32,000 nt of DNA, from assembly GCA_048882505.1 (NCBI GenBank), contig JBHLRO010000001.1, positions 270,001 through 302,000 of the forward strand. Direction: 5' to 3'. This document shows positions 5,404 through 19,976 of this stretch, one piece after another. Both the position numbers and the translations under genes were made by a program. The notes below the pieces were generated by a model that saw only the letters and a program-made list of their open reading frames with translations, had not been told where the DNA came from and made no database searches. How positions within the stretch are numbered: position 1 is the stretch's first letter; the number at the start of each line of letters is the position of its first letter. This DNA comes from Candidatus Thorarchaeota archaeon. GTDB taxonomy: Archaea > Asgardarchaeota > Heimdallarchaeia > Hodarchaeales > Hodarchaeaceae.

Positions 5404-7758
5404 ATGGCAGAAGAGTCCGAGAAACCTTCCAAAAAGCTGGTTATTCTTTCCGCAGGGGTTGAACTATCACCTGTCATGGAACAATTACTCCGTGCAGGTC
5501 TTAAATTTACTGTTGGTCTTAACACAACAGCAGATTTTGCACTATACGAGGATGTTGAAAAAGAAAAGGGCAAGGACAAAGAACCGATTGTCGAAGTTTG
5601 GTACCACCATGAAATTGTAAAACTCGCCGCTACTATTGTACCTGACGACCTTACGACTAGTCCACTGACCAAAATATTTACTAGGAATATCGACCAGTCG
5701 CGTATTCCATTGAGTGAGACGGAAATGTTCTTGGTTCAGTGGGTATCTGAAATGCATCGAGCAAATCAAAATCTTTTCGATTTCTTCAAAGCACTAAACG
5801 ATTATGCCCGGAATTCTGTTGAGGTTCATCCTTTAATTCTGGCCCCAGACGCAATCGCAGTTAAAACAGATGGCAATCATGTTCCTTTACGATATTTCCA
5901 GATTACTGGCCTTATTGAAAGGGATGCCAAAACTAAACCTGATATTGAACATCTTCAGGAATTGCTTGTGAAAAGCCAAGAATTAAAGGATAAAAAGAAA
6001 GCTAAAAAACTCATTGAGATTATAGGCGCGGATTTTGACAGAACAGTGCTGCCTGAAGAATTAAAAAGGGCGATAGTTGAAGCAGACGGTCTTCTGTTGG
6101 TCACCGGGGATCCATGCAGTATGGCGTTGATGCTTCTCCACAAAGAGATTACAAAAGCACTATCAAAATCCAGCGCTCAAACCACCATGGTGTGCCCTGG
6201 GCGCCTTACATTTCGGGAACAGTTTATATTGGAACTGTTAGACGTTAAACCGTCTCTTTTGGGAATAGCAGAAATTGGCGATGGGATAGTTGACAATTTA
6301 GTTGTTGGCCCCGAAGATGCTAGTGAGGTCACTGATTTACGATCCAAAGGATTCAATGTCATAATGCAGGATATAGAGGAGATTGAAGGCGATAAAGATC
6401 TTAATTCAATCCTAAAGAGTGTTGGAATCTCACTTAAGGATATATCTATCAAATCTGAGGGCGGGGGATCGATAGGAACCTTAGAGGATTTGGTCACTCA
6501 ATTAACATTCAAGCCCGTGGAAAAGCCGATACTCGATTCGGAAGAAGAAACCAAGAAGATAGAATTGCCGCCGTCTGCCGCTGTGGCGGATATGCAAACG
6601 ACTCTTGAAGTACATGCACAACAGGAACCAGAAAACACTGTCAAATTGCAGGATGTCAACGTGAAAAACTATGACTTTTCTGATCCTACGCTCGCCCTAA
6701 CCGACGATATGGTCGAAGCCTTAATGAAAGAGTTAACAGGAGAGTTTCCACCCTCATCAGTGGTAATAAAAACTGGAAATTCTGACGAGGAAAAGTCTGA
6801 GGTCAAACCCCTACAGTTTGAAAGCCAAGAGGCGTTTACGGAGGCTATTCAGAACTTTTTGAAGCTAACCTCATTCAAGAACCAAGAAGAACTGATCACG
6901 GGAATCGGAGAAGCCATTGCAGAGAACGCGGACATGGCAGCGTATGCAGCGAAGAGACTTACTAGTGCTTTGGAGGTTCACTCTAATACCCAAGAACTTG
7001 TAGACATTTATCTTCGCTATCTCAAGCCTCGCCCCTTAATCTTCATCAAGGAACTGTTGGATTTGCTTTTCAAAGACATTGGAAATCCAGACTTTGTTTC
7101 TTTTTCCCAGCGCGCAGCAATTGTCGTTCAAATGAGAAAGACCGAACTTAAATTTGTTAGTGAACTCATTGAACAAATGATTGAGTTCCAACTCGTAAAG
7201 TCATTGTCACCAAAAGAGAAGGAACATATTAGAACCGTATTGGTAGGAATCACAGCCCGGGATGTCACTCTTCAAAGACGAGCGATTTCAACCTTTTTGA
7301 AACACTACGATGAAACCTCAATGAATGATGAAGTTTGGTTAGGTTTATTGAAATTTGACGCTGCATTAGTCGCTCTAGAAATCGTTGAGCATCAAAGCAA
7401 GAAGGGACTTCATATTGTCCAAGATCTTTCTAAACGACACCTAGGCAGCTTTGGACACGTGATTTATGATGTGTGGACCGCCTACCAAGCTGGCGACATG
7501 CAACATGTGCTCCAGATTGCGGGAACCTTGTCCGACGGACTTCTTCGAAAACAACAGCGTATTGAGCTCGCTGGTCGAATTAAAAAGTTCGGAAGTGTTC
7601 CAATTGAAACACTGTCTCGTAGTGTAGAAATGGATCCAGGAGAATTGGAAGCCCTTGTGTACGAAATGATTAACGAAAATGAATTAAATGCTAAGATTGA
7701 AGTCGTGGAAGGTCGATTGACAATCGTTCAGGTAAATAATGAAGAAGTTGCCGATTAA
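5404..7758 (+). CDS. 784-aa multidomain protein: degenerate CofD/YvcK-like N-terminal domain, acidic linker, helical region, C-terminal PCI-like winged helix
   Basis: aa ~10-335 follow the CofD strand/helix order (KLVILSAG, FTVGLNTTADF, AIVEADGLLLVTGDP, TTMVCP, VKPSLLGIAE..VDNLVVGPED). The C-terminus FGSVPIETLSRSVEMDPGELEALVYEMINENELNAKIEVVEG matches the PCI winged-helix consensus. Confidence 0.65.
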   Translation: MAEESEKPSKKLVILSAGVELSPVMEQLLRAGLKFTVGLNTTADFALYEDVEKEKGKDKEPIVEVWYHHEIVKLAATIVPDDLTTSPLTKIFTRNIDQSRIPLSETEMFLVQWVSEMHRANQNLFDFFKALNDYARNSVEVHPLILAPDAIAVKTDGNHVPLRYFQITGLIERDAKTKPDIEHLQELLVKSQELKDKKKAKKLIEIIGADFDRTVLPEELKRAIVEADGLLLVTGDPCSMALMLLHKEITKALSKSSAQTTMVCPGRLTFREQFILELLDVKPSLLGIAEIGDGIVDNLVVGPEDASEVTDLRSKGFNVIMQDIEEIEGDKDLNSILKSVGISLKDISIKSEGGGSIGTLEDLVTQLTFKPVEKPILDSEEETKKIELPPSAAVADMQTTLEVHAQQEPENTVKLQDVNVKNYDFSDPTLALTDDMVEALMKELTGEFPPSSVVIKTGNSDEEKSEVKPLQFESQEAFTEAIQNFLKLTSFKNQEELITGIGEAIAENADMAAYAAKRLTSALEVHSNTQELVDIYLRYLKPRPLIFIKELLDLLFKDIGNPDFVSFSQRAAIVVQMRKTELKFVSELIEQMIEFQLVKSLSPKEKEHIRTVLVGITARDVTLQRRAISTFLKHYDETSMNDEVWLGLLKFDAALVALEIVEHQSKKGLHIVQDLSKRHLGSFGHVIYDVWTAYQAGDMQHVLQIAGTLSDGLLRKQQRIELAGRIKKFGSVPIETLSRSVEMDPGELEALVYEMINENELNAKIEVVEGRLTIVQVNNEEVAD

Positions 7759-8768
7759 GACGAAGTTAATACGATAAGATAAAGCGTAATGATCAGGAGG
7801 GCCGTAACAACTGATATCCAAATGATATTCAGCCTCTTAACCTTTGCGAGCTGTCTTTTTGACAAACCTCTGCTTTTTACACCAAATATCCAAAACACTC
7901 CCGTACAAGATAGATTGATTGCCAAAACGTTTAGTACCAATAAACTGGTTGCACTCAATGTAAGATCCCAAGCTCCAAGTGCACCTAGGATTCCTATAGT
8001 CGCTGCAGGAGGGCATAATGAAGCTGCGATCGCTACTCCTACAATTGAAACGTCAAGTCCTCTAGCCACGATTAATCCTGCAGCCAATCCCCCCAAAAAG
8101 GCTAGAGCAATTGCGGGTGGGCCCAAAATTGCACGATTTAGAATTTCAGGGTATACAAACTGATTAGTTATGGGATCTTTTTCAAGGATTTCGATTCCGG
8201 AGATCGCGTGGAAAATAGTTCCCCAGACCGCCCCTGTCAATACGGTGACAGAAAGTCCGGTAAACTCGGCCCAAGTTCCCCGCTTAACGAAAGAAGTAGT
8301 ATCAAGGCTTAATAGCCCTAGAGAAGTTAGAACTATAGGTCCAAGTAGCGGAGCCACTATCATACTTGCAATGATTACAACAGAATCATTGTTTATTAAT
8401 CCAATGCTTGCTAATGTCGCTGCAAGTATATTCATTAGTAAATATATCCCAGAAAAGCCTGAAATATCGCCTAAATTCGCTAATATTTCTTCTCGATTGA
8501 CACCAGCCGCGGAAGGGAGCGTGTTCGCCTCCTTCTGACTTGAAATCATCAAAGAAACTGGCCGTACAATAATATCCCCATATGCAACACCGATTCCCCG
8601 GGCTTTTAGCTCCTCAATCATAACATTAGTTTGGTAATCTTCAACAGATAGTTCAAACACAACTAGCTCCAGGAAATCGTAGGTATTTGATCGAAGTTTA
8701 AAATCTAGCAAAAACTCGTCCATAAGACTTTTTTTGTCTGTAGGAATTGTAACTTGAATTTCCTTCAA
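7755..8768 (-). CDS. TIGR00341 / DUF389 family membrane protein
   Basis: IGLINNDSVVIIASMIVAPLLGP and VGVAIAASLCPPA motifs. Start moved to TTG 8768 (MKEIQVTIP), 6 nt after GAGGTG at 8775-8780. Its stop overlaps the stop of the convergent gene at TTAA 7755-7758. Confidence 0.9.
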   Translation of the reverse strand: MKEIQVTIPTDKKSLMDEFLLDFKLRSNTYDFLELVVFELSVEDYQTNVMIEELKARGIGVAYGDIIVRPVSLMISSQKEANTLPSAAGVNREEILANLGDISGFSGIYLLMNILAATLASIGLINNDSVVIIASMIVAPLLGPIVLTSLGLLSLDTTSFVKRGTWAEFTGLSVTVLTGAVWGTIFHAISGIEILEKDPITNQFVYPEILNRAILGPPAIALAFLGGLAAGLIVARGLDVSIVGVAIAASLCPPAATIGILGALGAWDLTLSATSLLVLNVLAINLSCTGVFWIFGVKSRGLSKRQLAKVKRLNIIWISVVTALLIITLYLIVLTSS

Positions 8769-9847: not shown

Positions 9848-11635
9848 TTACTTATCTGGAAAGAGCACGCCATCAATGATTTCGGTTCGTGCCATTTCGA
9901 TATCAAGGTTTTGCCCGTATATTCGTTCGATTGCATCAATAAATGCGGAATGCCGCCGTGCATTTAGAAATTGACTGGTTCTTCTATGAAGTGATGGGCG
10001 TTGAAGAGGCTCTTTTTGGTCCAGCTCTTCCGTCCCAATGGTTTTAGCAAGTGCAATGGTACCTACTGCTCTGTCTTTACTTCTATTTAAGCTAAAGATT
10101 AGCTTTGTTTCGCGTTCATTCATCATAAACAGTTCTTCGATATCAATGGATTGCGGATCAGAGAAGGTAACCGTATGGAATCGGTCAACCGCTGTCTCTA
10201 GCCCACCTAGCATTTGGACAATTTCAGGTACCATCTTAAATTGCGGATTAACTTTAAATTCGATTTTGCTTGTAATTTTGTCTGAATCAAAAGCGCCCTG
10301 GACATAGTAGTTCGCTTCACGTACAGAATCGAATAGCTCAAAGATGTGAAGGTCACCTACTGCATCAATAGTCAGGCCTTGAGCTATGAACGAATAGGGA
10401 GCTATAATAGATGAAAAATCCCTTGCCTTGCGGGTCATCTTTTTCTTCACAGGTTTTGTTACAGATTTATCCTTATCCACCTCTGTAGATCCTTTTTTTC
10501 CAAACAATAAACCTAGAATACGGCCGAAAAGTCCAGGTTTTGATTTTGGTCTCCTAGGATCTAGTGATGGTTTAGATGAGGTCACCTTCTCGGGAACTGG
10601 CTGCTCAGGTTCGATTTTAGTAATGATCGATTCACTAGATCTTTCTAGCGCGTCCCGCCATCCTTCTCTTTCCGCGCCTCTAAATCCTAATATAGTCAAT
10701 ATCTTGGTAAGATTAAGGTCGTCAGCGGGAGTTACGAGTACAAACACGGACTTAGAGGGGATAAACGGATTTCTAATAATGAAAAAGTCGTTAGAACTAT
10801 TTCCTATTCTCCCTCTTAATGAAACAAAATGATACTCCCCTATCTGTTTATCCAGGGCCTTAACAAGGTTCTTGAGTTCGTCCTGTATTTTTTCTAGGTT
10901 TAGCTGAGATTTTCGGCTCCATGCCGCGAGATATGCAGGTTTGCTCGAGTCAAACACAACGGCGCTTTGACTCTCGTTAAAATTCGGAACGCTCACGATT
11001 TCCTTCTTTTGAATTGTATGGCCTACCTGATATTTCTTTAGGAGTTCCCAGATATATCTAGTCAATTCTTTAGATCCTTTATGAGACGGCACTTGGTCAA
11101 AATAGCCGATCTCGGCATCTGGATATCCACGTTGAAGTGCTGCGGAGATAACACCGAGTTCCCATCCTGCAGGCCCCTCTCCTAGGATGTCTGCAGCAAT
11201 CCAAAGGTAGGGGGTTATGTAAGCATCCTTTAACCTTAATAACGAAATTTCCCGTGTGACTCCACGATCACCCATAAATGCGTCTTGCGAGCGGATTTCA
11301 ACCGCCGTCTTGTAGGCTAGATAGATGATTTTTAGCAGTTTTTCGGGAGATTCGCACCTCTTTTGTCCCATGATAAAAATATTAACAACCGTACGATAAC
11401 GGTCTTCGTCTGTACATCCACTAGGTAGTACAGATGAAGTAATAATGAAATCTGCGACAAATAAGGCTTTTGATGCAGTTTCTGAACTAAGTCCCTTTTC
11501 CGTTGCAAAAGATATCCATTCAGGTGAATATGTAGGATATTTAGCGAGACGATCGGCTAGATTATATTCCTTCTCGAGATTGGAAAGCATATTCCGTAGT
11601 ACTGTTTCATTTGGTATAAAAACTTGCCTTTGCAT
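9848..11635 (-). CDS. Hypothetical 595-aa protein with two possible roadblock/longin-like domains and an internal amphipathic helix
   Basis: Long ORF with ATG and no TM segment. It has a helical N-terminus, two alpha/beta segments, and a K/P-rich linker containing KPGLFGRILGLLFGKK. Fold calls are pattern-level only. Confidence 0.6.
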   Translation of the reverse strand: MQRQVFIPNETVLRNMLSNLEKEYNLADRLAKYPTYSPEWISFATEKGLSSETASKALFVADFIITSSVLPSGCTDEDRYRTVVNIFIMGQKRCESPEKLLKIIYLAYKTAVEIRSQDAFMGDRGVTREISLLRLKDAYITPYLWIAADILGEGPAGWELGVISAALQRGYPDAEIGYFDQVPSHKGSKELTRYIWELLKKYQVGHTIQKKEIVSVPNFNESQSAVVFDSSKPAYLAAWSRKSQLNLEKIQDELKNLVKALDKQIGEYHFVSLRGRIGNSSNDFFIIRNPFIPSKSVFVLVTPADDLNLTKILTILGFRGAEREGWRDALERSSESIITKIEPEQPVPEKVTSSKPSLDPRRPKSKPGLFGRILGLLFGKKGSTEVDKDKSVTKPVKKKMTRKARDFSSIIAPYSFIAQGLTIDAVGDLHIFELFDSVREANYYVQGAFDSDKITSKIEFKVNPQFKMVPEIVQMLGGLETAVDRFHTVTFSDPQSIDIEELFMMNERETKLIFSLNRSKDRAVGTIALAKTIGTEELDQKEPLQRPSLHRRTSQFLNARRHSAFIDAIERIYGQNLDIEMARTEIIDGVLFPDK

Positions 11636-11835: not shown

Positions 11836-12309
11836 ATGGGCCGTAGAGTATATGTAAAAGGGAAAAAAACGTACGCCAAGGGTCAGGCGCCAGATTTATC
11901 GAAAAGTAACCGCTATCAGAACATTATTAGTCTTAGTAGCATTCGCGTCGAAGATGTTCATGAAACAAATCCTATAGACAGAACAGGTGAATTTTATTTT
12001 CAAGTTGGCGGGAAAGGAGTTATCAAACAAGATGTTCGGGTACCCTATGAGGGTACAATCAATGTTAAGGAAAATATGACGTATACGTCAAAGCAAGATT
12101 TCACCTTATGGCTAGAATTCGACGAAACGAGTAAAGCGAAGACAAAAGCGATCCCTATCAAACTTAGAGAAGCGGATGCGTCCAAGGATGATACAGTAAT
12201 AAAAACGGACATCAATTTGGTTTATGGCTCAGGTACAAAACATGAAGTAATAAAGGGAAAAGGGGTAACAGTTAAGCTAAAAATATCATCCCATAAGACC
12301 AGATTCTAA
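11836..12309 (+). CDS. Small all-beta protein, C2-domain-like
   Basis: Alternating-hydrophobic strands with acidic loops at C2 Ca2+-loop positions (RVEDVHETNPIDRTGEFYFQV; IPIKLREADASKDDTVI). GGTGA RBS upstream. Confidence 0.55.
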   Translation: MGRRVYVKGKKTYAKGQAPDLSKSNRYQNIISLSSIRVEDVHETNPIDRTGEFYFQVGGKGVIKQDVRVPYEGTINVKENMTYTSKQDFTLWLEFDETSKAKTKAIPIKLREADASKDDTVIKTDINLVYGSGTKHEVIKGKGVTVKLKISSHKTRF

Positions 12310-13015: not shown

Positions 13016-13122
13016 TAGGCTGAAAATTCCAAATCATATGCTTGCCTTGACCCAACGCATTTTAAATTGGTGGTGAGGTGGAGCTTAAGGCAAATTGAAC
13101 GATTTTGATAAGAGTACTGGTC

Positions 13123-14565
13123 GTGATTATTATCGAAGATTTACTTATTTTTGCGGCAAGAGAAGCTGAAGGGTCTGGAGCTTTCATTGAAGCGCGTTAT
13201 GAGGATTTAACCCTAAAAACCCTTGTTAGAGAAAAAGATACACTAAAAGAAGTAATCAATAACAGGCGATTGGGAATAGCAATAACTGCGTATTACCAGG
13301 GAGTTCAAGGTTTTTCTTTTACAGCGTCCGCAGAAAAAAAAGATATAAGTGAAACTGTCGCCAGGGCAATAAAAATCGCAAAGGTTAGCGAACCCACAGC
13401 TCGCTTGAGGCTACCCTTTGATACTGACGCTAATTTACCCGACGTACGAACCCCGTTGGCTCCCAAACATATCAAAAAGCATCCACTTGACTTCGATTTA
13501 GAGTTCAAGAAAGAAATGGTAGATCGTGCTGTTAATACGGTACTATCTTTCAAGAAACCTGAAGCAAATTCAGTTATTGGGAGATACGGAGAGTTAACTG
13601 GCATTAAAATGCTGTACACCTCTGATGATAGGATGGCGGTTTGGAATCCCCTAATTACGGATCTTCGCATAGGAGCTATCGTTAAAGATGATCGTGGAGA
13701 ATTGCTTCGCGCTGGTGGCGGGAGTGGTGGAGCTTGGGGATTGGATTATTGGGATGGGAACGACAACACTCCAGAGAAACTAGCGGAAAATGCCTATAAT
13801 TGGGCCGTTGAAAAATGTGGTGCAAAAAAACCACCTGCAGGGGAGCATCGAGCGCTTACCGATCCTAAACTATCCGCAGTACTTGTACATGAAAGTTTTG
13901 GTCATCTATGTGAGGCCGACGGTGTTGTCGAAAATACTAGTCCGCTTGCTGGAAAGATTGGGAAAAAGATAGCTACGGAAGAAGTTTCGGCCATAGATGT
14001 AGGTGTTATGGACGGAACAGCAGGTGGATTATATCTACCATTCGATGATCAAGGTGTTCCGACCGCTCGGACGGTTTTAGTTGAAAAAGGAATACTTAAG
14101 TCCTACCTACATAATCGTGGAACGGAACATTATCTCCCTGAAACGGGAGGTTTGAGCGGTAACGCTCGTGCCATTACTTATCGCTTTCCCCCGATTCCAC
14201 GCATGAAAAACACCATTTTCTTGCCTGGATCAGTTAAAACTGAGGAAGAAATGCTAGAACTTCTTGACACAGGTATCTACTCGATTGATACCACGGGAGG
14301 ATCTGTGGCGTTAGGTGAATTCCAGTTTTTCGCAACCCGGGGATACTGGATTGAAAACGGAGAAAAGAAATATCCTCTAAGAGATCATCTGCTAACCGGA
14401 CATATTCTACAGGCGTTGCAAAAAGTTGAAGCATTAAGCCAGGATTCTATTCTTCTATCTGGATATTTTGGAGGTTGTGGAAAAGCTGGTCAATTCCCAC
14501 TTTCAGTTGGAATGGGCGCCCCTCATATGCTGTTTTCGGGAATTCAAATCGGTGGGGAAACTTAA
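13123..14565 (+). CDS. tldD: TldD metalloprotease subunit (start uncertain, 13105-13132)
   Basis: HExxxH zinc motif VLVHESFGHLCEAD, PFDDQG, SGNARA, PIPRMKNT and C-terminal GCGKAGQ. Confidence 0.93.
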   Translation: MIIIEDLLIFAAREAEGSGAFIEARYEDLTLKTLVREKDTLKEVINNRRLGIAITAYYQGVQGFSFTASAEKKDISETVARAIKIAKVSEPTARLRLPFDTDANLPDVRTPLAPKHIKKHPLDFDLEFKKEMVDRAVNTVLSFKKPEANSVIGRYGELTGIKMLYTSDDRMAVWNPLITDLRIGAIVKDDRGELLRAGGGSGGAWGLDYWDGNDNTPEKLAENAYNWAVEKCGAKKPPAGEHRALTDPKLSAVLVHESFGHLCEADGVVENTSPLAGKIGKKIATEEVSAIDVGVMDGTAGGLYLPFDDQGVPTARTVLVEKGILKSYLHNRGTEHYLPETGGLSGNARAITYRFPPIPRMKNTIFLPGSVKTEEEMLELLDTGIYSIDTTGGSVALGEFQFFATRGYWIENGEKKYPLRDHLLTGHILQALQKVEALSQDSILLSGYFGGCGKAGQFPLSVGMGAPHMLFSGIQIGGET

Positions 14566-14586
14566 GACTAGTTAGAGGTGATTGTT

Positions 14587-15975
14587 TTGCCGAAGATACA
14601 ATTTGAAGAACTAAGGGACTACCTACAGCGGTTAGCAGAAGAAGGGGTGAAATATGGCCTAGGTTCATATCCTAAAGCTGAGATCGAGGTCTATCTTGCC
14701 TACGGGTATGAAGCAGAAGTTGCAATTGAACAGGGAATTCCTAAAGCTAAGGATGGAGCGTCAGGTGGAGTTGGAGTCCGAATCGCATTGGAAAAAAACC
14801 TGGGTTTTGCAGCGGCATCAGGACTTAGTAGAGATGTGATTAAATCGACGGTAGATGAATCATATGTTACAATGCGAGCTATTTCCGCCCCTGATAACAA
14901 ATTTGAGGGCTTTGCAGATCCAGTACAAAAAAATTCGAAAGATGGTATAATTTTTAAGCCGATTCTTGACATTACTTCAGCTGATCTTATTGAACGAGTA
15001 AATACAATCACTGCGGAAGCGAATGGAATTGACAGCAGGATTGTATCAATTTCTGGTGAATCTGGAGTCTCTTATGGCGGTTTTTCGGTCACAAACTCTC
15101 GTGATGTAAATGTAGCAAGTACTATGGCTGCCAGTTATATAGTAATCGAGTGTATCGCTCAGGAACAAGAAAAAAGGAAAGTAGGCTTCGAATTTGATGT
15201 TTCACGGGCCAGAGAGCTAGAATGGAATGATCTAGCTGAACTGGCTGCAAGGCATGCACTCGATCTTCTTGATACGCGAAAACTTTCAAAATCGGAAGTT
15301 CTTTCTACCGTGTGGGAACCACGTGTAAGTTCCACATTCATTCTTAATAGTTTGGCCAGGGCATTGAACGGCAGACAGGTTGTCGAAGGACGATCACGCT
15401 TTGCAGATAGAATCGGAGAAGAAATTGCTCATCCAAACTTTGGATTGGTGGATAACGGTCAACTCCCTGAAGGACTAAATACGAGTGCATTTGATGCGGA
15501 AGGCATACCCAGGCAGGAAACCGTACTTGTAGAAAGGGGTACTCTTCGAAGCTTTTTATTCGATTCTTACTACGCCAGAATCCATGGAACTGAATCTACG
15601 GGAAATGCAACACGTTCAGGACAAGAATCATTTTCAAATACTCCGAATGTAGGGATAACAACTCTCGATGTCCCTTCAGGCACCTCTAGTACTGCTGATG
15701 CCATCTCAAACATTGATGAAGGAATCTATATTCAGGATTATATTATGGGGTTATCACATTCTGACCCAATCAGCGGGGATTTTTCTGCTGTATCTCCACA
15801 AAGCTCCTTAATCAAGAATGGTGAAATTGTTGGTGCTTTGGAGCCGATCACAGTTGCGGGGAATTTTTATACGGCATTATTAAATATCCAGGCCATTTGC
15901 AATGACGCAACGCTCACACCTTGGAACATCAAAATCCCCACCATGATCATTGACGGTTTCACGGTCTCTGGTTAA
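14587..15975 (+). CDS. pmbA: PmbA/TldE subunit
   Basis: TldD paralog lacking HExxH, with FDAEG, STGNA and ITVAGNFY motifs. Lies directly downstream of tldD. TTG start 6 nt after GAGGTG. Confidence 0.92.
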   Translation: MPKIQFEELRDYLQRLAEEGVKYGLGSYPKAEIEVYLAYGYEAEVAIEQGIPKAKDGASGGVGVRIALEKNLGFAAASGLSRDVIKSTVDESYVTMRAISAPDNKFEGFADPVQKNSKDGIIFKPILDITSADLIERVNTITAEANGIDSRIVSISGESGVSYGGFSVTNSRDVNVASTMAASYIVIECIAQEQEKRKVGFEFDVSRARELEWNDLAELAARHALDLLDTRKLSKSEVLSTVWEPRVSSTFILNSLARALNGRQVVEGRSRFADRIGEEIAHPNFGLVDNGQLPEGLNTSAFDAEGIPRQETVLVERGTLRSFLFDSYYARIHGTESTGNATRSGQESFSNTPNVGITTLDVPSGTSSTADAISNIDEGIYIQDYIMGLSHSDPISGDFSAVSPQSSLIKNGEIVGALEPITVAGNFYTALLNIQAICNDATLTPWNIKIPTMIIDGFTVSG

Positions 15976-16028: not shown

Positions 16029-17870
16029 TCATTCCTGAGAATCATATATTGGAAGAGATAGGTAAAAAGTTGTCCCCCTGGGTGAATTCTCTTCAAACCA
16101 GATTTTACCTTGATATGCTTGAACAATATTGTATGATATTGACAACCCAAAGCCGCTCCCTCGTTTTTCGGGTGGCCCAATTGATGCAAACGGTTTGAAA
16201 ATTTCGTCCTGACCATTGTGTGGTATTCCAGGGCCATTATCGCTGATTCTAAATAACCACTGTCGTTGGTTCTCTTGTTTTCTTATCTCTACCTCTATAG
16301 TTCCCCCATTTGGGCTGAATTTAATGGCATTGTCCAATAGGTTTCGAAGGACACTATTAATCCTATAGTCTGCCGGAACCAAGATTTCCTCCAGATCTGA
16401 AGGCCATTTTTCTTTCAGTTGGAGTTCCTTCTTCTCCAACTCTATATTATAGGTTCTTTTTATAACGCTAAATTCCTTTCGGAGGTTCATCGGTTTTAAT
16501 TCTAGCTCACTATAATCATGTGTATCAAGAGTAACAACGTATTCCAGGGTATGATCAATGATATCTTCCATTCCTCTGGCTCTAAATGCTATTGATTCAA
16601 GATATCGCTCAGTTTCTAATGAAGTATTTTTAACGGCAAGGTTGGAACTCAATAAATCGGCGAAACCTCGGATTACATGTATAGAATTCTTCAAATCATG
16701 AGAAATGATGTTTAACAGGCTTTGTTTAAACTCATTACTTGTCTTTAGGAGGTTAGTAACCTCTCGTTCAGAGGTTATGTCCTGAATGAAATATATGTAA
16801 CCAATGTGACTATCTCCCTCGTGGAGTGCTTCTATAAGAATCCGAAAATAACTTTTACGAGATTGATCTGGCAGGGTTCCTTCGATTTCCAAATTAATTT
16901 TTGCGTTAGGATCGCTAGAGAGGGTTATCAACCCCTTTTCGATATCCTGAATTTGGTCAATGTAGGGAGTCAGTCTCCTCTGTTTAGCAAGAAATGAGAA
17001 AAAATTCATCCCTATGGAAGTCTCCCGAGACTCAGTGAAAGGCGGATCGGTAATATAAGTCCAACCTTGGGGATTTACGTCAATTATCCTATGATCTAAG
17101 GTGGTAATTATTATGCCCAGATTCGTGGTTTTAAATATCAAATTGTGTGCGGCGGGTAGAATACCCAGCAGATCGAAATTATACATACCGATGAGGAAGA
17201 TTGAAGTGAAAACCATAAATGTTAACGGCGTTATATTCAGGTAAATGGAGAAAGGGAATAATTCGATAATATCGATTATTAGGCCTGCCAATATAGCTGA
17301 CACAGAGGCTAGAAAAGTAATAACCTGCTTTTTATAGAGAGGATGCGGGTTTAACAAGTAGGAACGTACAACCATAAACACGGCAACTATCACAAACGAA
17401 GCGGATATTATTATATGTGCCCAAAGGAATGGACCGGGATTATATGTCAGTGATGGAAACGCAGCCTCTTCGTAAAGCTCAATATGGTCAAAAATCAATT
17501 CATGAGATGCATTTGTCAGTACCAAAACGTAAATAAGCGTTCCTGGAACAAAGAAAGGAATAAGACGTCGTCGATTTAGGAAAAAATACTCCGCATAGTG
17601 AGTAAAGGATAAACTGAATAAGAAAAAGAAAACGGGGAGATACATGATACTGAAATATTGAATATACAACCAAAAAACCATAGTTGAGTAATCTACAGCC
17701 AAAATCTCAAAAATGTAGCCAATTCCCCACCAAGAAGTGGTTCCAGTCATTAGGACGAACATATAATTGGTTCTAGTACGCGGGTAAAACGCAAACACGT
17801 AGAGCGTCAATAGACTTACAATGATAGCAGAGAGAATATAAGGAATAACTGCCATTGTGAACTCATACAC
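16029..17870 (-). CDS. Sensor histidine kinase: HisKA_7TM-type membrane domain, PAS-like domain, HisKA, HATPase_c
   Basis: Seven-TM N-terminus. H-box ISHDLKN, N-box NLLDNAIKFS, G1 DNGPGIP, F-box IFKPF, G2 GSGFGLSI. Confidence 0.92.
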   Translation of the reverse strand: MYEFTMAVIPYILSAIIVSLLTLYVFAFYPRTRTNYMFVLMTGTTSWWGIGYIFEILAVDYSTMVFWLYIQYFSIMYLPVFFFLFSLSFTHYAEYFFLNRRRLIPFFVPGTLIYVLVLTNASHELIFDHIELYEEAAFPSLTYNPGPFLWAHIIISASFVIVAVFMVVRSYLLNPHPLYKKQVITFLASVSAILAGLIIDIIELFPFSIYLNITPLTFMVFTSIFLIGMYNFDLLGILPAAHNLIFKTTNLGIIITTLDHRIIDVNPQGWTYITDPPFTESRETSIGMNFFSFLAKQRRLTPYIDQIQDIEKGLITLSSDPNAKINLEIEGTLPDQSRKSYFRILIEALHEGDSHIGYIYFIQDITSEREVTNLLKTSNEFKQSLLNIISHDLKNSIHVIRGFADLLSSNLAVKNTSLETERYLESIAFRARGMEDIIDHTLEYVVTLDTHDYSELELKPMNLRKEFSVIKRTYNIELEKKELQLKEKWPSDLEEILVPADYRINSVLRNLLDNAIKFSPNGGTIEVEIRKQENQRQWLFRISDNGPGIPHNGQDEIFKPFASIGPPEKRGSGFGLSISYNIVQAYQGKIWFEENSPRGTTFYLSLPIYDSQE

Positions 17871-18095
17871 TTAAATCAGTCTCCTAGGGTATCCACGCGT
17901 GTCTTACAATAACTCCAATAGACCTTTCATTAAAATGGATCCTTATTGAAGATATCTCCAAAAAAATGCAAGCAATGTACTTGATTAAATGCTGCCGCTC
18001 TTGCCATAGTTACGTAAACTTCAGATATGCCATAGAGGTCGAATTTCACATAGCACCAAATCGGCCCAAATTAGATGGATATTCGAAGGATCGCT

Positions 18096-19976
18096 TCATT
18101 CTTTAATTTTTGGGATCCCAGGTATTTCGCAAATGAAAATAGATCCAGCGGGTTTGTTGTCCTGCACCCAAATTCTGCCGTTGAACGACTCAATGATTTC
18201 TTGAACTATTGTTAAACCAAGACCAGTTCCGAGCTTCGTTTTAGAATCGCTGAATGTCGTGAACGGCTTAAATATTTCTTCTTTTAGCGTGTCAGGTACA
18301 CCTGGCCCTTGATCTGAAAAGCTGATCTGCCAAATTTCTGGAAATTGGATGACGTCGATCTTGATTTCGGAATTTGAGGGAGAAAACTTGACGGAATTAT
18401 GAAGAAGGTTAAGGAAAGCACTCTTTAAAGCGAAGTTTGCAGGTACAAGTGCCAAATCCTTTTCAGGAGGCTCAAAAACAACGTTTAACTCTTTGTCGTT
18501 AATTTCGGGCTCTAATTCCTTTAATACTTGAAGAAGTAAATCTGATACGTCTACCGAGACGATCTCCTGCGATTTGATATCTAAATCAATTTTAAGCCAT
18601 TTGGTCACATCTTCAATGAGGTTCAAAGTAGTTGTTGTCTTTGCTTCTATTGCTGCTAAACTCGTCTTAATATCGGAAGTATCCTGAGAGGAACTTCTTA
18701 ATGATGCCAGGGCCAGCTCGGAATATCCGCTCATCGTCATTAAATGATTCTTCAGGTCATGTGATAGAAGTTTGAGGATAGTACCGGTTAGTTTTTGCTT
18801 CTTTTGGAGACTGGTTTCCGCTCTTTTTCTATCCGTAACGTCACGTAGAATTACCAAGAATCCTAGGAGCTTATCCTTCCTTCTCAAACCCGTTGCTAGG
18901 AGATCATAGTATCGATTTTCAAGACCAGTAACCTTGTGTGGATTTCTAAGGAGGATTTCTGTACTACTTACTATTGTTTCTCCGGCCTCGATCTGCTCTA
19001 AACCAATTTGAAATAATGTAGCATAATAGGCGCGCTCCTGAGCGGCTTCCTTTAACACAGAGACGACGTTTTTTCCATATATTTCCTGAGGCTGGTGTTT
19101 GGGGACGAGAATACGATAACCCGCTGTGTTTATGTCAACAATTCGCCATTCCTGATCTAAAACAAGCAATCCATCCAAAACTTCCTCGAAGACATAATTG
19201 CGCGCAATGGGTGCAATATCTAGGAATCCTGTTTCAAAAATAGCGTACGCGAAGAGAATATAGGCAATTACAAACATTATTGGCGTCAAATCAATGAAAG
19301 CTATCGGTGGAATGAGGTTTGTAACCCGAATGATATTGCCAATGAATGGAAAAAGAAGTCCAGAGAACACTATTATTATTTGTTTTTGGTAAAGATAATT
19401 AACTGATTTTCTTCGTTGAACCACATATGCCTGGATGAGGAATATCATTCCAGCTAGTAATAGGATATATGAGTACAGAGTGTGAGAATAAAAAGCAAGT
19501 CCATATTCATGTTCCACCGATACAAACTCAGGAGTTATTATTAGTTGTGACTGAAGGTAAAACATGTTGTGCATGTCATTGGTAACTAAAACGAGGTAAT
19601 GGAGTAGGGGAGGGAGGAATAAGAGCCAAAGAAGTGGTTTGGTTACAGGGTTTCCTCGTTTCGTAAATATATACGCAAAAAAGAGAAAAAAAGGGGGAAC
19701 TGCAATAATTCCAATATATTCAATAAAGATCCACAAAAACTTAGTGGGAAGGTCTGTTGCCGCAAATTCCAAGGTATACCCGCCACACCAAATCGCCGTA
19801 GAAATAACCAATGCAATGAAATAGCCAGAATACATTGATCGGGGTCTAAAGAAAAGTGAGTAAAATAAGAGAAAAATTGCACAGACCGTTACGACACCCA
19901 ATACTAATACGAATACGGAGATTTGGTAACCCAAAGCTTTGTCCCGTTCCGTTACTCCGCTATGAAGAGTAACCAA
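18096..19976 (-). CDS. Sensor histidine kinase, tandem paralog with the same 7TM-PAS-HisKA-HATPase architecture
   Basis: H-box LSHDLKN, N-box NLLHNSVKFS, DQGPGVP, IFKPF and GTGLGLTI. The 7TM region aligns by eye with the neighbouring kinase. Confidence 0.92.
   Translation of the reverse strand: MVTLHSGVTERDKALGYQISVFVLVLGVVTVCAIFLLFYSLFFRPRSMYSGYFIALVISTAIWCGGYTLEFAATDLPTKFLWIFIEYIGIIAVPPFFLFFAYIFTKRGNPVTKPLLWLLFLPPLLHYLVLVTNDMHNMFYLQSQLIITPEFVSVEHEYGLAFYSHTLYSYILLLAGMIFLIQAYVVQRRKSVNYLYQKQIIIVFSGLLFPFIGNIIRVTNLIPPIAFIDLTPIMFVIAYILFAYAIFETGFLDIAPIARNYVFEEVLDGLLVLDQEWRIVDINTAGYRILVPKHQPQEIYGKNVVSVLKEAAQERAYYATLFQIGLEQIEAGETIVSSTEILLRNPHKVTGLENRYYDLLATGLRRKDKLLGFLVILRDVTDRKRAETSLQKKQKLTGTILKLLSHDLKNHLMTMSGYSELALASLRSSSQDTSDIKTSLAAIEAKTTTTLNLIEDVTKWLKIDLDIKSQEIVSVDVSDLLLQVLKELEPEINDKELNVVFEPPEKDLALVPANFALKSAFLNLLHNSVKFSPSNSEIKIDVIQFPEIWQISFSDQGPGVPDTLKEEIFKPFTTFSDSKTKLGTGLGLTIVQEIIESFNGRIWVQDNKPAGSIFICEIPGIPKIKE

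Follow-up and report, generated by a model that had tools for sequence, protein, structure and literature searches.

A single conserved gene joins a CofD-like domain to a PCI-like winged helix

The window, a 32,000-nt stretch of an Asgard archaeal genome (contig JBHLRO010000001.1, positions 270,001 to 302,000), carries on its forward strand an open reading frame (5404..7758), uninterrupted by stops, which encodes a protein of 784 aa made of four parts: a pseudo-CofD domain, a linker, HEAT-like helices and a PCI-like winged helix. The next gene, on the reverse strand (7755..8768), encodes a TIGR00341/DUF389 membrane protein, and the stop codons of the two convergent genes overlap (TTAA, 7755-7758). 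In the predicted model of the whole 784-aa protein (pLDDT 77), an alpha/beta domain is joined through a disordered linker to a helical solenoid, and a winged helix comes last. A homologue search recovered 42 full-length homologues with an identity of 49-60%, mostly named Hodarchaeales or Heimdallarchaeota, so that the join between the CofD and PCI parts is natural and an assembly artefact is ruled out. A single-sequence search of the PDB gave no match, an Atlas feature search gave no usable match, a search of sequencing runs listed none that holds RNA, and the signals found in a promoter and terminator scan were at chance level.

When 301 Asgard genomes were searched with the fusion profile, the same architecture was found as a single copy in 60/64 sampled genomes of five families of the Heimdallarchaeia, the class of the window, beside an intact CofD. 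Where the contig is unbroken, these homologues are single open reading frames of ~730-1000 aa. The search recovered no fusion from family f7 or from two f2 genomes, both of them incomplete. The initial annotation knew of no described protein with this architecture, and this is supported: in the literature library searched, no paper dealt with a CofD/PCI fusion or with TIGR00341, and the CofD/PCI-like fusion is a real and conserved architecture, for which a function is proposed below.

The N-terminal domain has the CofD fold

A CofD/YvcK fold had been proposed from the letters alone for about aa 10-335. The domain (aa 10-343; 5431..6432, forward strand, as are all features of this gene) matches Pfam CofD (PF01933) below threshold (E 9e-4, 19 bits versus a cut-off of 30), and in NCBIfam the fusion protein matched neither TIGR01819 (CofD) nor TIGR01826 (YvcK). 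The family profile of the domain matched M. mazei CofD from end to end (E 7e-12), hhalign gave 98% to the genome's own CofD, and FbiA/CofD were the top matches in Foldseek (E 2e-7). With VIA, the domain was superposed on M. mazei CofD (3cgw) with a Z of 20.9 and an rmsd of 3.3 Å over 278 residues. The Z was 20.6 with FbiA and 13-17 with YvcK proteins, and the domain is therefore closer to CofD than to YvcK. The structural match to CofD/UPF0052 proteins on which the initial reading depended was thus present by both Foldseek and VIA, and it lies on the CofD side.

The full fold is shared with the CofD/FbiA enzymes (PF01933, TIGR01819; PDB 3C3E, 3CGW, 6UW3) at a Z of ~21, and G18, D44, P143, S239 and D297 are retained in the window protein. 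Unlike these enzymes, however, the domain lacks the Gly loop, the D45 ligand, WWG, GDxD, HxQE and the GP loop, has three new invariant residues, is fused, and coexists with an intact CofD, which in the host genome is encoded separately in an operon elsewhere. The YvcK/GlmR proteins (UPF0052, TIGR01826; PDB 2O2Z, 2PPV) belong to the same superfamily, but they match the domain less well in structure, and the domain carries neither of their motifs, GGGTG and DDGGSSG, and derives from the CofD branch.

The catalytic motifs are lost and the pocket is rebuilt

The motifs of 43 fusions were compared with those of 13 intact Asgard CofDs, in a register that agrees with hhalign. In the window protein the phosphate loop SGGTGTPK has decayed to SAGVELSP (5449..5472), with only G18 kept; HEIV is found in place of PDxD and PLRY in place of HxQE. 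The Gly-loop residues G9, G12 and K15 are present in 13/13 intact CofDs, whereas they are unconserved in the 43 fusions, which also lack the D45 position, WWG, GDxD and the GP loop, and keep G18 and D44. In FbiA the catalytic metal is bound through D45 and D57 (PMC7253369; PMC8498797). The first ligand is lost in the NTTADF segment of the window protein (5521..5538), where A43 takes the place of D45 and the next Asp is kept as D44 (38/43 fusions); across the fusions the residue equivalent to D45 is mostly L, S or C. The position of the second ligand (FbiA D57) is occupied by E70 (5611..5613), an E in 42 of the 43 fusions. Two new invariants, each found in 43/43 fusions, are R163 (5890..5892), at the invariant Q of the HxQE motif of CofD, and D236 (6109..6111), at the invariant N of its GPSNP motif. 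E70, R163 and D236 are near-invariant in the 43 fusions at ~20% identity, and they are not so in the stand-alone copies described below.

Since the CofD motifs are lost and three new invariants stand at positions that are invariant in CofD, the domain is not a CofD, and its cleft has been remodelled rather than simply eroded. The claim of catalytic degeneracy in the initial annotation was borne out; the GTP/GDP-binding phosphate loop and one metal ligand are gone. Judged by its sequence, the domain falls outside the CofD/FbiA enzymes: the fold is present, the Gly loop, the metal Asp pair and the family cut-offs all fail, and the activity is predicted to be lost.

Stand-alone degenerate copies point to a loss of function before the fusion

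Ten other Asgard families, including Freyarchaeia/Jordarchaeia and Asgardarchaeum, have stand-alone degenerate CofDs of 295-405 aa, in 26 genomes altogether, and no common set of catalytic residues is retained among these proteins. The tree places the fused domains in one group (support 100/99) and the intact CofDs in another (98/92), and puts the stand-alone degenerate copies between the two. If the root lies at the intact CofDs, it follows that function was lost before the fusion; with this rooting the tree shows a dead CofD older than the fusion, an early Asgard CofD duplicate that was later fused once to a HEAT-plus-winged-helix module in Heimdallarchaeia. A recent duplication of the host CofD as the source was rejected by the tree, with the long branches as a caveat. 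In a separate observation, the f20 genomes G020, G041 and G058 (L058, L111-L113) carry five or six CofD-like copies each, several of them mildly degenerate, as an intermediate stage of decay.

The C-terminal half is a helical region ending in a PCI-like winged helix

An acidic linker followed by a long alpha-helical region had been noted behind the N-terminal domain, and both were recovered. The linker (aa 346-472; 6439..6819) has 26 acidic versus 11 basic residues, is largely disordered (pLDDT mostly < 50) and varies in length across the family. Residues 473-709 (6820..7530) are helical throughout in the predicted structure and form HEAT/MIF4G-like hairpins, and the helices upstream of the winged helix match HEAT proteins by sequence. 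The winged helix itself (aa 710-776; 7531..7731) is the most conserved part of the protein; no helix follows it, since the protein ends in an 8-residue coil, and its relatives either stop there or have disordered tails. Folded alone, the C-terminal module reached a pLDDT of 92.6.

The assignment of this winged helix to PCI, as initially proposed, is upheld by sequence. Pfam PCI (PF01399) was matched at aa 723-772 with 25-29.5 bits versus a cut-off of 22, and it was matched by 32/40 family members, whereas any other winged-helix family was matched by at most one. The best PDB match by sequence was eIF3e (E 1.6e-6), followed by eIF3c, CSN2 and CSN7b. By structure alone, PCI (CSN2, Z 10.2) is tied with generic winged helices (Z 9.4), among them those of transcription factors and Z-alpha. 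The whole C-terminal module fits PCI subunits loosely (rmsd 8-21 Å; Z 9.5 at an rmsd of 8.3 Å), and in the Atlas its nearest structures were Rpn6/CSN2 with a TM of 0.47-0.48, MIF4G/HEAT proteins matching equally well. Of the residues in the third helix (745-757), five are acidic and none is basic, a composition that would favour protein over DNA binding. The f3 fusions L048, L052, L071 and L050 have swappable C-terminal tails, which are a C2H2-like zinc finger, a helix-hairpin-helix-like motif or Lys-rich repeats.

A homologue search with the C-terminal module, at lengths of 168-602 aa, yielded family fragments and one PRC-type paralogue, and no eukaryotic protein. Genomes of family f7 have, instead of the fusion, two proteins each in which a PRC-barrel-like N-terminus is placed on the same HEAT and winged-helix module (L091-L096; P0106, P0111, P0120), so that the winged helix, found also behind these domains, is a portable module. 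In the host genome, which is 94.6% complete, the module was detected only once. Pfam PCI matches above the cut-off were found in 107/151 Asgard genomes in many architectures, and an independent assembly of common parts is therefore possible for the C-terminal module. The idea that the window gene encodes the sole PCI protein of its genome was rejected, given that a tandem winged-helix RING protein, missed by the genome scan, also passes PCI. This tandem PCI-type winged-helix and RING-like protein (28.4 bits on PCI) is encoded 5 kb before the window (L144:1772-2866).

The pseudo-CofD gene is linked to a gene for a DUF389 membrane protein

The DUF389 protein encoded at 7755..8768 combines several membrane helices with an N-terminal domain that has the shape of P-II and c-di-AMP receptors (TM 0.73-0.75 over ~77 residues), and it is the proposed partner of the fusion. 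A DUF389 gene is present in 26/26 genomes with a stand-alone pseudo-CofD; it is the direct neighbour in 19 of them (18 on the same strand and one convergent), lies two genes away in five, and in the remaining two is 4 kb off or on another contig. In the complete or near-complete relatives G001, G006 and G038 neither a pseudo-CofD nor DUF389 was detected. The fusion adjoins DUF389 in 15 genomes of the window's own family and in 4 of family f3; in f4, f6 and most of f3 this adjacency is lost. These counts are inflated by kinship and amount to 1-2 independent contrasts. In Heimdallarchaeia the two genes are convergent, and thus they are not co-transcribed. DUF389 was also found where no pseudo-CofD was detected (f7, f11, f14, f17 and others), so that it can do without this partner.

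Co-folding of the N-terminal domain with DUF389 gave a score of 0.51 versus 0.01 for the best control, with at least 94% of contacts shared between runs and a partner pLDDT of at least 77. The mark for a pass was reached by 58/80 solved pairs and by 2/110 mismatched pairs; at scores of 0.60 or lower, however, it was reached by only 7/80 solved pairs, yet by both mismatches. Hence, the result lends the pairing weak support, in a score range where passes are often wrong, and it yielded no interface. R309 of DUF389 was found in 20/20 proteins from genomes with a pseudo-CofD versus 1/14 from genomes without one, and with 1-2 independent contrasts it was not counted as evidence; nor were the congruent trees of pseudo-CofD and DUF389, which are expected from vertical descent. 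The DUF389 proteins of f11, f14, f17, f22, f28 and f29 group together, and the last membrane helix is missing from them.

Across Asgard archaea, the gene neighbourhoods suggest that the pseudo-CofD partners the DUF389 protein and does not belong to a proteasome-type complex. A dead CofD that predates the fusion and travels with DUF389 is new here and had escaped the initial annotation, and the DUF389 link is a first functional handle both on an Asgard-wide pseudo-enzyme and on a widespread membrane family. In Freyarchaeia (L164:5001-9971), a pseudo-CofD stands ahead of genes for a Band 7/SPFH protein, for DUF389 and for a zinc-ribbon protein that weakly matches CdvA, all on the same strand, and this neighbourhood hints at a membrane-organising context.

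A putative non-catalytic adaptor and its alternatives

The reading that we favour, with a probability of about 0.45, is that the fusion is a non-catalytic adaptor which docks on the DUF389 membrane protein and uses its winged helix to recruit or multimerise. On the rooting given above, an early Asgard CofD duplicate lost its catalytic motifs and came to be linked to the DUF389 gene, and the pseudo-CofD was then fused once to the HEAT-plus-winged-helix module in Heimdallarchaeia. The pseudo-CofD domain may act as a regulatory or anchoring subunit bound to the DUF389 protein on its cytoplasmic side, and the domain's rebuilt pocket (D44, E70, R163, D236) could hold a small ligand or act as a salt-bridge lock, while the tethered winged helix would multimerise or recruit other proteins, giving a membrane-anchored scaffold. 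This adaptor reading is based on the loss of the CofD invariants in the presence of an intact CofD operon elsewhere, the tree, the old link to the DUF389 gene, the co-folding pass and the conserved, portable winged helix; it is weakened by the broken link in f4, f6 and most of f3, the convergent genes, the DUF389 proteins without the partner, the kinship behind the counts, and a co-folding score in the range of frequent false passes and with no interface. A non-enzymatic, ligand-binding use of the CofD/YvcK fold is known from YvcK/GlmR, which acts as a regulatory partner of another protein. By analogy, the window protein may be a pseudo-enzyme that works as an adaptor, as GlmR does.

The same precedent could serve a soluble metabolite sensor untied from DUF389, in which the pocket with an F420-like or nucleotide ligand would control the assembly of a PCI-like scaffold through the winged helix. 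This is the closest to the initial idea of a ligand-sensing domain on a PCI scaffold, and it is compatible with the adaptor reading. The near-invariance of E70, R163 and D236 in the fusions, which the stand-alone copies do not share, and the loss of the DUF389 link in several families favour such a sensor, but with the phosphate loop and the Fo-site motifs gone, and with the ancestral synteny and the weak co-folding pass pointing to a membrane partner, we consider it unlikely.

If the charged invariants at CofD pocket positions (E70, R163, D236 and D44) were instead a new catalytic site, the protein would be an active enzyme re-tooled for another phosphoryl transfer; E70 could still bind a metal. 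The Gly loop and one of the two metal ligands are gone, however, the stand-alone ancestors share no catalytic set, and no conserved enzyme genes lie near the fusion, so that such an enzyme is distinctly improbable. A nucleic-acid-binding regulator, with the winged helix on DNA or RNA under the control of a CofD-like sensor, draws on the structural comparison, in which winged helices of transcription factors and Z-alpha tie with PCI, and on the C2H2-like or helix-hairpin-helix-like tails of f3 members; it is very improbable, given the acidic third helix and the choice of PCI, not HTH families, by the sequence profiles.

Least probable is a role in a proto-lid, proto-signalosome or proto-eIF3 complex alongside MPN proteins, for which the Rpn6/CSN2 matches in the Atlas, the description of PCI as HEAT plus winged helix (PMC9467303) and five JAB/MPN matches in the host genome can be cited, but against which stand the missing C-terminal bundle helix, the lack of a detected paralogue of the module in that genome, whereas lid, CSN and eIF3 complexes have six PCI paralogues and an MPN pair, the location of two MPN genes in E1/E2 operons away from the fusion gene, and the large whole-module rmsd. 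The part of the initial annotation that made the protein a PCI scaffold subunit of a lid, CSN or eIF3-type complex is not supported, with no bundle helix, no paralogue set detected and PCI matches in so many Asgard genomes.

PCI complexes have been stated as not known in archaea (PMC6043591), and PCI subunits have been proposed to descend from a HEAT domain to which a winged helix was added (PMC9467303). The eukaryotic subunits Rpn6, CSN2 and eIF3e have helical hairpins followed by a Pfam-PCI winged helix, as does the window protein, which differs from them in a whole-module TM below 0.5, the lack of a bundle helix, its single copy and its N-terminal pseudo-enzyme. In the Asgard HTH/PCI proteins (Makarova et al. 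2024, PMC10936438) and in DDRGK1/UFL1, a PCI-like winged helix is likewise a portable domain for interactions, used beyond the three PCI complexes; that paper mentions no CofD fusion or DUF389 link. It would be a bold and rather improbable view that eukaryotic PCI subunits have a true archaeal sister in the HEAT-plus-winged-helix module, which would self-assemble into a ring and, in Heimdallarchaeia, be anchored to a membrane protein via a repurposed CofD, as a single-gene forerunner of PCI scaffolds. Since the family, found in the class nearest to eukaryotes, has the HEAT and winged-helix layout as a single copy, the proposal of PMC9467303 can be tested with one small domain.

Other genes were seen in the course of the analysis. 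In genome G000, E1-, E2- and JAB-like genes cluster at two places, C9 and C18 (L136, L137). Within the window, the long open reading frames at 1411-2550 and 9848-11635 have no Pfam or NCBIfam match, and that at 11836-12309 has no match on Pfam, the one library searched for it; a TldD/PmbA pair lies at 13105-15975 and tandem 7TM-PAS histidine kinases are encoded at 16029-19976.
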